Below, in pieces: positions 2,097 to 12,429 of a stretch of 64,000 bases of DNA. Position 1 is the stretch's first letter, and every line of letters begins with the position of its first letter. The DNA is taken from NCBI RefSeq assembly GCF_009834535.1, contig NC_045696.1, positions 71,550,001 through 71,614,000 on the forward strand, read 5' to 3'. The notes beneath the pieces were generated by a model that did no database searches, was not told the DNA's origin, and was given only the letters and a program-made list of their open reading frames with translations. Origin of the DNA: Camelus ferus. Taxonomy: Eukaryota. A program made the position numbers and the translations under genes.

Positions 2097-3016
2097 CTGC
2101 GTGGCCTAGTCCTTGGGGACATCATTTCATTCCCAAGTATGTGGTACCGTCTTGCTTCATGCAACAACTGATAACACTCAGGAGAATTCTGGATCAATTG
2201 GTCCACCTCAACTGTCTGAACGAAGTAGTTGGGATGCAACAGAGGGAGTCTCACATGTGTCAGGAGCTCATGTAACAATGGTCTTCTCAGATCAACAGCA
2301 CGGTAGACCCAACGCATGACTGCTTCAAAAACCATCTCCTCTTTACCAATAACAAGTTCATCGCTACAAATATAATCAATAAGTTCATCTTTGTCAAGCT
2401 CAAGAAATTCTTCATGCTGGGACACATCCTCAAAAGTCTGCAATGCAAAATTCTTGCATTTTGTGAAGAGTGTTTTGAGGGAATGGGTATCAGCAAAGCG
2501 CTGGATCCCTAAGCAATTACAAGGATCAAGTTGCTCCTCCAAGAACTTGGCACATGCATCACGGAGAACACTAATCTGAAAAAGGCTTGATGTTTCAAAG
2601 AGATACTGTACATTCTCTGTAGTAATCTTCACCTTTCCAGTATAAACATACTGCAAAAAACATTCCATAGCTTCAGCTAAAATACCATTGATCTCAACCA
2701 ACATTTCTCGGCTTTCCCTGTGGTCATTACAAAACATAGCTCTGAAGTAGCTACTACAGGCTGAGAGAACAGCTCTATGGCAAGGAAATTCTTTTCCTTC
2801 CACACAAATGATAACATCTGTGAATAAGCGGCTATCTCGGAATTCATTAAATATCTGAAGTATGTTTTCAGCATGGGATGATCCTGAAGAGAAGTCAAAA
2901 AACTCACGGCCTGTCAGAGATTTAGGGTCCATTTCAAAAACTTTACGCTTTGTTGCTGGTGAATCACGCACCCCGAGATCCTCTCTGTTTAGTCTTCGTC
3001 CCAATATTAGTACCAT
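2097..3016 (-). CDS. KLHL24: Kelch-like protein 24, first coding exon (codons 1-307, BTB and BACK domains); gene continues beyond the left edge of the window
   Basis: ORF 2093..3016 reads MVLILGRRLNREDLGVRDSPATKRKVFEM...DVIICVEGKEFPCHRAVLSACSSYFRAMF (BTB)...NCLGIQRFAD...VFEAVMRWV...VRLPLL (BACK)...PRTRPRR, recognisable as KLHL24. Start context ACAATGG. Donor CAG|GTGAGA with GT at 2096-2095, giving 920 coding nt (phase 2). Confidence 0.98.
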
Positions 3017-3077
3017 TGTTACATCAGTTGACTATATAATTGTTGAGAAATAACTGTTACGGATCTTCTTTATGTAG
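3017..3077 (-). other. KLHL24: 5' UTR part of the KLHL24 first coding exon
   Basis: Minus strand has a T-rich tract (ttttaattttttttaatttttag) with AG at 3079-3078, so the exon begins at 3077, 61 nt before the ATG. Confidence 0.9.
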
Positions 3078-4374
3078 CTAAAAATTAAAAAAAATTAAAA
3101 CATTTCAATATGTAAAATGTTCAGTAAAATTTTATAATTTCATTTTGATGTAAACAGTATAACAAAATCACATAATTAATATATTTCATACAGGGTATAG
3201 AGTACTATCTCATCTTAATAAAAATTGATGAATAAAAATTTATACTATTAGAATATTAGAGGTAATTTGCAATAGTACTCTTTAAACCACCACCCCGCCA
3301 ATTGAAAGGATACTATGTACTTTGTGAATTACTGATAACCTTAAGTTTCCCCTTTATACAAATGGGTTTCAACTATTGAATGTAGAGTTAAGTCAGAATG
3401 CTATAAGACACAGAACTTGACTATATTCAGAATCCTAATGTAAATGTTTATTATCTTAATATAGTGTGTTGCTAGAGAAGAATTCGGGTACATCCATTAA
3501 TGGCTTTTAAAAATATGTATGTTTTTTGACTGAGCAAATCCCTTTCTAGCAATCTATCCTAAGGAAATAATCAGGATCATATGGAAAGATTTATCTACAA
3601 ATATTCAATGCTGTATTAATAGAAAATACTTAAAACATCCTAAATACCCATCAATAGGGTATTAAATCACAGTGTATATAATGATGGAACATAGTCTATG
3701 CGGCCATTAAAAATTATATAGACTGTTTAATGACACCGGGAAGTATTAACCAGACAGTAAGTGAAAAGCAGGTATCAAAACATTTGCAAAGAAAAGAGAA
3801 AAATTTAAGTATCAGTGCATCTAGGCACAGAACAAAGGAGTCACATATGCCAAAGTATTAAGTGATTTATTTGTCTCCTTGCAGGTTATCCAATTTCTTG
3901 GGTTAAGGCTGTCCATGCATGCGTGTGCATGTCCGCAAGCACATGAACACATGTCTGGGTGAAATTAAAAAAACTCGCTTATAATGTACATATATGCACT
4001 TTCAAATTCCAAGCTTCTGTATACAGGCAGTAGCACAAATCTCAAATATGCTTTTAATCTGAAGTTATTATCTCAATAACAGTTCATTTTATAGAAATCT
4101 ATCTCCCATAGAAGAGACATGACTACTGTGCTTGAATGTCAATTTTTTATTATTGAAACTGTAAAAAGTTCAAAGCGGGTAATGTTGCAAGTGATAAATA
4201 TTCAATTATAATAAATATAAACTGTGGTATGACATATAACTCATACTTTAATCTTAAAGCTTTAATCTAAATTAAAAATATAGTTGAATTAGTCACAAAT
4301 CAGCTTCCCAAGTCAAGAACTTATTCTTCAAATCAGCTTATTTAACTTAAATTCTTATTGCATTTCAGATTTAA

Positions 4375-4466
4375 AAAATTCAAACCATTGTTTTTGACTA
4401 GTGAAATAATTACTGGCATTAAAATTCAAACCATTGTTTTTGACTAGTGAAATAATTACTGGCATT
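4375..4466. repeat. Perfect 2 x 46 bp tandem duplication
   Basis: aaaattcaaaccattgtttttgactagtgaaataattactggcatt at 4375-4420 and 4421-4466. Confidence 0.97.
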
Positions 4467-6012
4467 AACGACAAAAATCTTGAGACTTCTGCCTCCATAC
4501 ATTTTTGTTTTCTTAATGTTTAAACGAAAATTTATTCAGACTGCAAAACAAAATAACATACTGCAAGTACTAAGAATTTCCCTTTTAGCTAAAAGGGACA
4601 AGTAAGAAAACAAATGAAAAGTACTCTGCTTTCTATATCCAATAATCTTACTGTATCTGGTATTTGTTATCTGTTATCTCATTGTATTTGATAAATTTGG
4701 GGGTAGCATATTGAATGAGTTGTAATAGTAAGGTTGATTAAAATTTTTTATGAATTAAGGGTTTTTTATGCTGTTTTCTGCCCCTTAATTCTCATGGCTA
4801 TTTTCCTTGATTGTTAACTGACAGGTCTCTAACTGCTTTACCCAATGTAGAATGGAAAATCTTGAATAAGAACAGCTATAAAATCACCTGCTGTTACAAA
4901 ATATTCAACAGCAACAAGATATTTGTTTACTGCTTTGTACATAAAAGAGGCTATCTCACAGATCTGGGCTATTTCCTTCCAAACCACTTTTGCCTGGCTT
5001 TTTGGATAGCCTGGTCTTTCTGAGAACTCTCCTATTAAGCAGTCCACAACAGCACGAAATATAAACTCTTTATATTGATGACAAAATAAATGAGTTGCAC
5101 AGGAGTTTATCAGGAATAGGAGATGCATTTCAGAGTGTATCTTTTGGGCTTCAGGTGTAATTCACTAGACTGTATTTTCCCATTTTACACAAAGTATTTT
5201 ATTTCAACTAGTAATGGTTAAAAATTTAAAGACACACTTAACCACATCTCAAAGTACAGCATCTAATATAGGTTTAAGATTTATCATAAATGAACTCATA
5301 AACAATCAAGCAAATGAAACATAAAATTACAGACTGAATTCTTCTAAAAATTTAGCAACTATCAAAGCATCATTATTCCTATCAGGAAAAAAACAGCAAC
5401 TAAGTAGGCTTCTCTGGACAAAACAAGAGAAAACATTTGTTCCAAAGAAATATAACGACTAAAAGTTATAACTATATAAGTTAGTGGATTCAAGGGTGAC
5501 CAGACTCTGAATGACTGACTGCCAAAGTCACATGACTTGCCTAGAAAAGTTAGTATCCCTTTCTCTCCCTCATTTTCTTCAGGAGCTAAACTCTCATTTG
5601 AAAGGTAGATTTTTAAGAGAAAGATTCTTCTAGTTAAGGGTACTCTAGGGTTTATTTCCAACTGCGGAACTCATAAACGTTATAGACCTAGTTTCTCATT
5701 GCTAAGTAGATTTAAAATTACATGTTTTTGGCCCATGTCCCAGAAAAATGAGTGGAGATAACTTACTTCCTGTACTGTCTCTAAGACTGGAGAAAAAGGT
5801 AGAAGAGGGATGGAGGATATTCGAGAGGAGTAGAAAGGAGTGTGTAAATGCTTTGTTTGGTAACAGAAATGTCTGTGGTGCTGCCTTTCTACATGATCTT
5901 GAGAATAGAATTGTTCCCTGTTCCTCTGATGGCATAAGTGATCCCTGGTTAAAGGAAAATGACTTGTACTTTCTAATGTTTAGAGAGTTTATAAATATTA
6001 AAAATATAATAC

Positions 6013-6054
6013 CTTTTCAGCATTTGCTTGATCAAAGCCCCAGTTTTTCCACAC
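6013..6054 (-). other. KLHL24: KLHL24 non-coding exon 2 (42 nt)
   Basis: ttttag|GTGTGGAAAAACTGGGGCTTTGATCAAGCAAATGCTGAAAAG|gtatta has canonical AG/GT ends. It resembles my recollection of the human KLHL24 leader (GTGTGG...CTGGGGCTTTGATCAACCAAATGCTAAAAAG). Confidence 0.75.
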
Positions 6055-9700: not shown

Positions 9701-11444
9701 TAATTTAAGAGATTAGGAAAATCTTCAACACACTATGACTAAAATGATTGTTCATACAGATTTTGTTACTGTCATAGAAGAGTGAGCTATAATCCCTCAA
9801 ACAAGGAAACAACTCATCTAAACCAGAGTATGTAAGAATCTTATTTTTTCAGGATATCTTCAAGGTATTTCTTTTAAAAATACAATTCTAATTTTACATC
9901 CTAGTCTTTAATAAAAACCAACCTCACCTGGTGGATCTAAACAGTCTGTAACTGCAAATATTAAGACACGATTTTAAAAGGCTGCTCAAGAGAGCAAGTG
10001 ATTAATTATTAAAATCCACTAGAATGAACTGTTACTAGTCACTGCCTCAGAGGTGACTGTGAGGCACTCTAAAATGCAGCGTTAGAGGCCTTATTTAGCT
10101 ATTTAAACTTTGTTTACCGAACAGGCAGTAACTAATTCGCCTGAGGACTTTCTTCCACTATCTGGGCAGATGAGGCCACACGAGTTAAAGAGGGCTAATC
10201 TGCCGGTCCTCCGAGGGCCGGCCGCGGCTGCGGTCCGCTGCGGACCCCAGAACTGCCTACACACTCAGGCAGAAGCCGCGGAGGCCACCAAAGGATGTCG
10301 GGGCTGCTGGGCCTTGCGCTCGAATCCTCCAGAGCGGGAGCGCGCGCCGCCGGCTCCACTCCGGCAGCAGCTGCGCGAGAGGCGAGCGCGCGCTCTCGCG
10401 CGTCCTCCAGATCACCTTCAAGGGGGCGGGGAAGAACTGCTAGGGCAAGTCCACCTAGCGACAAGACACCCGCCAATAAACACTCGAAGCTCGCCCCGTC
10501 GTCCCGCCTGCAAGCCGCCGCAGGCCCCCAATCCCCGCTGTGTTAACAGTCTTCGCTCCGACTGTACAGGACCTGGAGGCGGGGCCATTAGGAACTAAAT
10601 TAAGAAACCGAGGCCTGGAGTGGTGGGAAGGTGGGGTGGTTAGGCTGGGACTCAGCCGGCGGAACGCCCGCTACCCCGCCCGCCTCAGCTCCCCGGGGAC
10701 TGTCGTTCCAGGGCCGGGCTCCCGGCGCGGGCCCCGCGGCGAGCGGTGGTAAACAAAGGCTCGCGGGCGGTGGGGGCGGGCGTAACGGTCAGGTGACAGC
10801 GCCCAGCATATTTCGCAACCGCTTTAATGGGGCTTCTCTGGCCCCCAGCCCTGGGACCCACCTTGACCCCGTCAGTCCTCCCCGTCAGGACTAAACGGCC
10901 TCTCCCACCAAAAGGGAAGGCTTTATTTGAGACTTTCGCATACTCAGACCTTCCTTCAATTAAAAAAAAAAAAAAAAAAAGCAGCGGCCCGTTCGAAGCC
11001 CATAGGCAACATGCGGTATCCATCTCCCCAGCCCTGTCCTCCAGCTGCCCGGGTCCCCGAGGCGGCAGGGTGACCCACACCTGCCACCCCCGGCCCCGGC
11101 GGCCATGCCCCTCCCAACCCGCCCCCAGCGGGTGCGCCAGCAGCGCCGCGGTTCCGGGGCGGCATTGCCAGGAGGCGGGGGTGCCCTTCCTTTCAGAGTG
11201 TGGTTACGGAACCGGGGCTGAAGACTCCCAGGGAGGCCCCGGAGACCGCCTCGCCCCAGATAGGGGCCCGGCAGCCTCAGTTGCAATCTCTCCTCAGACC
11301 CCGCGTCTGACTCCGAGAGGCCGGCCGCCGATGGCTTCCCCCTTGCAGACACCCCCGTGGTCGGGACCTCGGCCGACCCTCCACCCCCAGCTCTGGCCGG
11401 TTGCTCGTCTTTCGGCCGGTCCCGGAGCTGTCATCCCCGGGTAC

Positions 11445-11597
11445 CTCTCCACGAAGGCTGGAAACGGCCAGCAGTAGTGGACTGCAGCGGCGGCCCCCGC
11501 AGTCCCTTAGCGGCCGGCGGCGCTGCGCTCTCTCTGGCGCCGGCGTCTCCTCGAGCCACCAGTCTCTCCGCAGCTCACAACAAAGGAAACATGTGAC
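11445..11597 (-). other. KLHL24: Probable KLHL24 non-coding exon 1 (TSS near 11597; donor position uncertain)
   Basis: Minus strand GTCACATGTTTCCTTTGTTGTGAGCTGCGG...GGAGACGCCGGCGC resembles the recalled mRNA 5' end and lies just downstream of CCAAT/ZNF143/GC boxes. Nearest GT donor is GAG|GTACCC (GT at 11444-11443). Confidence 0.55.
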
Positions 11598-11740
11598 CGC
11601 CCGGGCCAAAACACTGAGCGTCACGGACCCCTGGCCAATCCGAGTGGGCGCCCCTGCCCCGGGGCACCCTGGGAGATGTAGTTCCCATTCTGGGGGTAGC
11701 CGCCAGGGCCGCTTTGGGTTTCCCGCTCTAGGGCGGGTTT
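11590..11740 (-). promoter_or_regulatory. TATA-less proximal promoter motifs: E-box GTCACATG (11590-11597), CRE-like TGAGCGTCA (11615-11623), CCAAT box (11635-11639), ZNF143/THAP11 motif (11669-11684), GC box (~11731)
   Basis: Motifs read directly. ctgggagatgtagtt reverse-complements to AACTACATCTCCCAG, matching ACTACAnnTCCCAG. Binding is not demonstrated. Confidence 0.65.
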
Positions 11741-12429
11741 TGGGTGCCAGGAGTGAGAGATCCAATCCAAGGAATGCTGATTCGGAAACACTTTATTTTA
11801 GGCAGAGGTAGGTTAAGGAAATGCATCCGTGTTAGGAGGCTAGTGAGAGACCTGAGTCGTATGTTTATTGCCACGTCCCAAGGCAAAAGCACATAACCAA
11901 GAATTCTCAGAACCCTGGAATTTGGGACTAGGCTTAGAGACCTTTTTATTTGACTCCTTCATATACAATCGGAAAATCTGAGGGCCTAAGAAGTGAAAGG
12001 GACTGAACCCTGGTAGCCAGACGGCACAGGGAAACCAGCTTTCTCTGTGAATCTGTTTCTGTCACTTGTATCATCCTGGGTTACCTTTTTATTTTAAACG
12101 TACATGCAAATCAGAAAAAGTTGTCGCAAATCCCTGTTTTCGGAGGCAGAGTCATCAAAGGACATTATTTTGTCTTTTTGTTTCTGCAAATATTTTTTCC
12201 AAGGTTGAGTATACCTCTAGATTTTGAAACATTTAACTAGTTTTTGGTTTCTGATATCAGAATTATAATTTCTCTTTCTTCCATACCTTATGAATATAGC
12301 CATGCCTTTGTTACATAAGGGCGTGTGTTCCTATGATCAGAGGTGTATATAGTATAGAAGGCTTGTGTCCAGGCCTTTTAGACATGCTTTTTGGTTCTCT
12401 TTTCCATCTGTTTTTTAAAAACGAAAATA

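Follow-up and report, generated by a model that had tools for sequence, protein, structure and literature searches.

An exon-spanning, in-frame upstream open reading frame in the KLHL24 leader of Camelus ferus and its possible role in damping translation

In this study, we analyzed the 5' leader of KLHL24 in a window of 64,000 nucleotides (nt) of the Camelus ferus genome (NC_045696.1, positions 71,550,001 to 71,614,000), focusing on an 18-codon upstream open reading frame (uORF) spanning two exons, in frame with the KLHL24 coding sequence (CDS) and separated from it by a single TAG. Human KLHL24 has two non-coding exons 5' of its main open reading frame (ORF) (PMC10087812). Its protein is harmful in excess, and both gain and loss of function are pathogenic (PMC10087812; PMC9503274; PMC9029237). 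Specifically, a stabilized form starting at Met29 (ΔN28) makes the skin fragile and leads to dilated cardiomyopathy; hypertrophic cardiomyopathy results from loss (PMC10087812; PMC9503274). The human counterpart of the uORF is listed in the GENCODE Phase I set of ORFs detected by ribosome profiling (Ribo-seq) as c3riboseqorf174, with 18 residues in blocks of 11 and 46 nt (Sandmann 2023, PMC10032668). The tables of Ji 2015 (PMC4739776) give the same human uORF as NM_017644:223:279 among 6,617 rows of translated uORFs, and an orthologous mouse uORF of equal length, NM_029436:170:226, among 1,328 conserved rows. The mouse entry denotes sequence homology rather than mouse footprints, and about one fifth of human uORFs pass this mouse-orthologue test (PMC4739776); the ribosome footprints reported in the published tables are those of the human orthologue (PMC10032668; PMC4739776). 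In addition, start-stop elements, which repress translation downstream of them, have been described in 1,417 human genes (PMC13338717). With its human counterpart catalogued as translated and a mouse orthologue listed, the KLHL24 uORF is thus already known, and the novelty implied by the first-pass annotation of this DNA, made from its letters alone, was overrated. In C/EBPalpha and C/EBPbeta, the uORF is short and out of frame and stops just ahead of the main start codon; ribosomes that reinitiate after it are redirected to an in-frame AUG farther downstream, and this isoform switch is proven there.

The 5' part of KLHL24 lies on the minus strand of the window, and all features given below are on that strand. 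In the predicted spliced leader, exon 2 (6013..6054) is joined to exon 3 (2097..3077). An ATG at 6023-6021 opens the uORF, which runs through an 11-nt block in exon 2 (6013..6023) and a 46-nt block in exon 3 (3032..3077), the same sizes as in human, and ends in the TAG at 3034-3032. From AUG to stop, the uORF is fully contained in the predicted 5' leader and shares the frame of the CDS. A spacer of 15 nt (3017..3031) follows the TAG, comprises five sense codons in phase with the CDS and leads to Met1 (3014..3016). The first-pass annotation had described this layout, and its coordinates, the five sense codons before Met1 at 3016 and the weak context of the upstream ATG (uATG; CAAATGC, with C at -3 and C at +4) were all reproduced. 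Exon 2 has canonical AG/GT flanks. The human leader peptide that it had given is identical to the catalogued human uORF peptide (PMC10032668), and the same 11+46 split in the human orthologue bears out that the uORF is spliced and common to human (PMC10032668; PMC4739776). The junction from 6013 to 3077 is probably used in Camelus ferus as well, judging from the splice signals and human orthology; a search of the animal's own genome for a processed copy of KLHL24 that would show the junction gave one match, the locus itself.

The start codons of this leader differ in context. Met1 (A at -3, G at +4) and Met29 (2930..2932; G at -3, G at +4) are both strong. Met29 is the next ATG after Met1 and the start of the human disease-type ΔN28, and it lies 99 nt past the uORF TAG with no ATG between the two methionines. 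We also identified an element overlooked in the earlier annotation, namely an ATG-TAA start-stop at 3019..3024, out of frame and in weak context (C at -3), whose start lies 7 nt past the uORF stop and whose end lies 2 nt ahead of Met1. Three bird gene models begin with four residues ahead of Met1 that are the same as those encoded by the last four spacer codons, which overlap the start-stop. The bases preceding Met1 are thus old, as would be compatible either with conservation of the start-stop and Kozak region or with coding constraint.

To estimate chance expectation, the 103-nt leader (exon 2 plus the leader part of exon 3) was put through 20,000 dinucleotide shuffles. A uORF of any kind appeared in 87% of the shuffled leaders and an in-frame uORF in 46%; in-frame uORFs of at least 15 codons were present in 8.7%, and in 5.5% such a uORF was accompanied by just one stop ahead of the CDS. 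Since 5.5% of shuffles match the full layout, its presence in one genome is only mildly unusual. The uORF was judged to be real because the human Ribo-seq call has identical block sizes and the mouse has an orthologue. Start, stop and length (57 nt) are kept in three species (Camelus ferus, human and mouse). Among metagenome contigs, 206 pattern matches yielded 5 loci of orthologous DNA, four of which (L007-L010) were left out; the other (L006), a distant locus of 75% identity and the only one covering Met1, has no similar uORF or spacer upstream of Met1.

Conservation of the peptide itself gave a divided picture. Fifteen of its 18 residues are identical between the window and human, and the human-mouse comparison yielded Ka 0.125, Ks 0.356 and Ka/Ks 0.35 on 18 codons (PMC4739776), values that would suit a peptide with a function of its own, whether exerted in trans or by stalling as a nascent chain. 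Against this, c3riboseqorf174 has PhyloCSF scores of -4.75 in primates and -367.65 in mammals and was found in 0 mass spectrometry studies, so that the published table offers neither a coding-type substitution pattern nor a detected peptide (PMC10032668). It is also labeled "primatomorpha - young", which means that it has no significant protein similarity beyond primates, ORF structure having been scored within primatomorpha only (PMC10032668). We therefore regard a functional peptide as very improbable.

Taken together, the KLHL24 uORF most likely works as an ordinary repressive uORF, aided by the start-stop. In this reading, which we favor by a modest margin, the two elements form a conserved, constitutive damper on the translation of a ligase adaptor that is sensitive to dosage, and leaky scanning bypasses this damper. 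The anatomy and the contexts come from the window, and the translation of the human uORF and the mouse uORF of the same length from the published tables; the weak contexts of the uATG and the start-stop versus the strong context of Met1 support this reading. Scanning ribosomes would meet the weak uATG, where a minority would initiate; having translated the 18 codons, these would terminate 15 nt short of Met1. Those finishing the uORF would mostly dissociate or fail to reinitiate within 15 nt, as expected from work on other uORFs (PMC10275272; PMC6547434), and the start-stop would catch a few more. Most ribosomes would leak past both weak-context ATGs and initiate at the strong Met1, and on balance the amount of full-length KLHL24 would be moderately reduced. 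KLHL24 is an adaptor of CUL3 and, when present in excess, destroys keratins and desmin. The uORF peptide would then be a by-product, and the frame shared with the CDS incidental.

Published data sets fit such a bypass, and two of them, on Denr and on arsenite, exclude more dramatic classes of uORF. The 1,466 rows given for uORFs whose translation exceeds that of their CDS more than 3-fold do not include KLHL24 (PMC4739776), which fits leaky bypass. When Denr was knocked down in mouse NIH3T3 cells, the translational efficiency (TE) of Klhl24 was unchanged in the published data (log2 fold change 0.04, adjusted p 0.99). Klhl24 thus did not behave there as a DENR-dependent reinitiation target, which fits bypass or recycling rather than reinitiation. 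Under arsenite, in one cell line and with 149 control reads, the TE of KLHL24 fell to 0.27 with a Z of 1.27; the median TE of that data set fell 5.4-fold and its Z threshold was 4, so that KLHL24 did not show the resistance to eIF2 phosphorylation in the integrated stress response that is conferred by uORFs of the ATF4/IFRD1 type (PMC4383229).

Several points weigh against a damping role. The Denr and arsenite data fit a negligible uORF effect equally well, and the weak uATG may capture too few ribosomes to matter. The human-mouse Ka/Ks might point to constraint on the peptide, albeit measured over just 18 codons, and conservation may partly reflect constraint on the splice site and on the leader in general. 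The start-stop was read from the window and not from human or mouse, and the junction was placed by orthology. In addition, no reporter or mutant of the native uORF was found in a literature search that left subscription papers largely outside, and for this reason repression is inferred from the class of uORF. These points shade into a near-neutral passenger, that is, a lightly translated uORF that persists in a constrained splice-flanking leader without a meaningful effect on KLHL24. Such a passenger would agree with the frequencies of the in-frame uORF (46%) and of the full layout (5.5%) in the shuffles, with the weak uATG, with the fact that KLHL24 is not among the highly used uORFs (PMC4739776), with the null effect in both perturbation data sets and with the lack of a uORF upstream of Met1 in the one distant, 75%-identical locus. 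It accounts less well for the retention of start, stop and length in human, mouse and Camelus ferus, the mouse test being one that only about a fifth of human uORFs pass. On balance we consider it rather unlikely.

The distance from the uORF stop to the following start codons allows another outcome, which can coexist with the damper and which we hold to be possible but on the unlikely side. Ribosomes leaving the uORF would resume scanning, pass Met1 before regaining ternary complex and initiate at Met29, thereby producing a small, regulated pool of wild-type ΔN28. The stop-to-start distance is 15 nt for Met1 and 99 nt for Met29 with no intervening ATG, and the geometry of the C/EBP type is present, with the uORF stop near the first AUG and a strong in-frame AUG at reinitiation distance. 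Longer stop-to-start distances favor reinitiation (PMC10275272; PMC6547434), as for preproinsulin at 79-140 nt (PMC10275272). In patients, the c.22A>T allele generates a short uORF, and its ΔN28 levels resemble those of start-loss alleles, which shows that Met29 can take up reinitiating ribosomes (PMC10087812). Moreover, a small flux to Met29 could matter because ΔN28 is more stable (PMC9503274; PMC9029237). Among 143 fetched proteins, some of which are not KLHL24, the position of Met29 is a methionine in 87 of the 115 that could be scored (28 of the 143 could not), and the named proteins with another residue are all from fishes; nevertheless, this conservation could be ordinary protein constraint.

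Other evidence tells against initiation at Met29. The uATG context is weak, and reinitiation falls as a uORF lengthens, factors being lost from the 80S ribosome at about 12 codons (PMC10275272), whereas this uORF has 18. There was no DENR effect and no arsenite resistance, although measures over the whole CDS would miss a small shift. A wild-type Met29 product was not found in the portions of the literature examined, and KLHL24 had no match in one small file of initiation sites (PMC5701008). The literature that pairs KLHL24 with a uORF, as far as its accessible parts go, concerns the mutation-made uORF; a study of the native element was not found there, subscription papers being largely outside the search. 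As a separate observation, the conserved N-terminus is missing from five diverged KLHL24-like proteins (P0009, P0011, P0021, P0024 and P0025; 73-78%) of hamster, voles and lemming, which may be paralogues or retrocopies. In two of these models the start lies near the Met29 position, like a natural ΔN28.

The first-pass annotation had further raised readthrough of the TAG, which would give KLHL24 with 24 extra N-terminal residues. The arrangement invites the idea, there being a single in-frame stop followed by five sense codons, and four spacer residues match the bird models. Still, 110 of the 143 fetched proteins have a recognizable Met1 motif and 20 of these have other leading residues, none of them uORF-like. 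Structure 3' of the stop is not unusual either (z +0.61); the four segments that were folded gave z between -0.25 and +0.61. Known readthrough motifs include UGA-CUAG and UAG-CARYYA, and the context of the uORF TAG matches neither. Together with the strongly negative PhyloCSF (PMC10032668), these results leave programmed readthrough without support, and we rate it as extremely improbable. Two related ideas were rejected. Two diverged hamster and vole proteins of 624-625 residues resemble in length a 600+24 extension, yet at the N-terminus they bear no relation to the uORF. Nor is the uORF left over from an ancestral N-terminal coding sequence, given that even the lamprey protein starts at Met1.

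Another explanation for the retained TAG and frame concerns circular RNA. Exon 2 (42 nt), exon 3 (981 nt) and exons 2+3 (1,023 nt) are all multiples of three with junctions in the CDS phase, so back-spliced exon 3 or exons 2+3 could encode a kelch-less protein of 321 or 335 residues. Translation would start at Met1, pass through the BTB and BACK domains, cross the back-splice, enter the codons of the uORF and terminate at the uORF TAG. In the exon-3 circle, the 321-residue ORF crosses the back-splice and this TAG is the only in-frame stop. The exon 2+3 circle has one stop in 341 codons of the CDS frame, again the uORF TAG, versus 15 and 42 in the other frames, and the TAG alone would prevent rolling-circle translation of either circle. 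The human exon-3 circle, circKLHL24 (hsa_circ_0001369), is validated at 981 nt (PMC12502155), human exon 2 (63 nt) is also a multiple of three (PMC8335669; PMC4739776), and a preprint (10.64898/2026.05.24.725548) describes circKLHL24 as highly conserved, with a high score in a database of predicted translatability. However, the post hoc chance of the layout is about 3% (at most one stop in 34 codons occurs in 25% of shuffles, times 1/9), and such a tail is absent from all 143 fetched proteins. The literature searched contained no published report of a circKLHL24 protein product, and an exon 2+3-only circle was not found in the literature examined. One KLHL24 circle was polysome-negative (Yang 2017, PMC5520850), but the circle tested is a longer one that ends at exon 7, as the forward primer maps to that exon (PMC5520850); that circle has a phase-0 donor and does not use the uORF/TAG frame. 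We consider a coding circle quite improbable as the reason for the TAG. A bolder combination, in which the native uORF would be a physiological switch that gives healthy skin and heart a small, tunable pool of the hyper-stable ΔN28 and the same TAG would be the sole stop of a kelch-less circKLHL24 protein, is possible but on the unlikely side.

With regard to the remaining anatomy of the gene, a CpG island lies at about 10-12 kb, with a GC content of 60-63% at 10001-12000. Candidate exon 1 (11445..11615) falls in this island and has a candidate GT donor at 11444; both ends are predictions, and the 5' end presumably corresponds to that expected from the length of the human exon. Within it lies a possible 5-codon uORF (11575..11592), in weak context, out of frame and near the presumed transcription start, which possibly exists, and only if transcription starts upstream of 11592. 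The KLHL24 rows of the Sandmann 2023 and Ji 2015 tables contain no counterpart of it. Exon 2 (42 nt, 14 codons) is open in the CDS frame, and its acceptor at 6054 is a prediction, being the first AG following a 43-nt AG-free zone. The acceptor is less certain than the donor, since human exon 2 measures 63 nt by published coordinates (PMC8335669; PMC4739776) versus 42 nt predicted here. The uORF is independent of the choice of acceptor. By eye, two ATGs in the uORF frame were noted at 6080-6055 in the intron just 5' of exon 2; an acceptor farther upstream than 6054 would lengthen the uORF, and human exon 2 is 21 nt longer. Exon 3, the first coding exon (327 codons, preceded by a pyrimidine tract and AG), encodes the BTB and BACK domains and has a length of 981 nt in both the window and human (PMC12502155 for human). 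A stop occurs immediately past its donor (2096-2093), and intron retention would yield a 307-residue BTB-BACK protein. Five more coding exons follow in adjoining genome stretches. In addition, intron 2 contains a direct tandem duplication with a unit of about 49 nt at 4477-4380 (by eye). One bird model among the fetched proteins (P0088), named YEATS2 and 1,890 residues long, opens with the KLHL24 N-terminus and is probably a fused prediction of neighboring genes.

The meaning of the uORF depends on which of these readings holds. It is catalogued, yet a functional study was not found in the searched literature. If it is a damper only, it would be one among thousands of uORFs, though relevant to the interpretation of variants in the KLHL24 5' leader. 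If it feeds Met29, the disease proteoform would gain a normal role, and non-coding pathogenic variants would be predicted. As a switch, leader variants that strengthen the uATG would form a new disease class in the context of epidermolysis bullosa with cardiomyopathy. The link to the disease proteoform is plausible and a worthwhile hypothesis rather than a result.

Compared with known systems, the uORF of the window is closest to human c3riboseqorf174, with which it shares the gene, the 11+46 nt split over exons 2 and 3, the 18 codons and 15 of 18 residues; it differs in coming from another mammal, outside the "primatomorpha - young" label. The mouse uORF NM_029436:170:226, listed as orthologous, likewise has its length. 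The Sandmann 2023 and Ji 2015 tables, as lists, are silent on uORF function, the start-stop and Met29. As in the start-stop elements described previously (PMC13338717), the leader in the window has an ATG directly followed by a stop. The circKLHL24 RNA consists, like the exon in the window, of a 981-nt exon 3, but it was described as a non-coding binder and regulator, in a main text without the words "encode" or "open reading" (PMC12502155). The c.22A>T allele (Vermeer 2022, PMC10087812) provides a likeness in its short uORF, followed by initiation at Met29 and a ΔN28 product; its uORF, however, is made by mutation, starts at the strong Met1 and abolishes the full-length protein (PMC10087812), whereas the native uORF has a weak start and a greater length, and Met1, downstream of it, is intact. 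Finally, the isoform switch is proven for C/EBPalpha and C/EBPbeta, and the likeness of KLHL24 to them would be one of leader geometry only.

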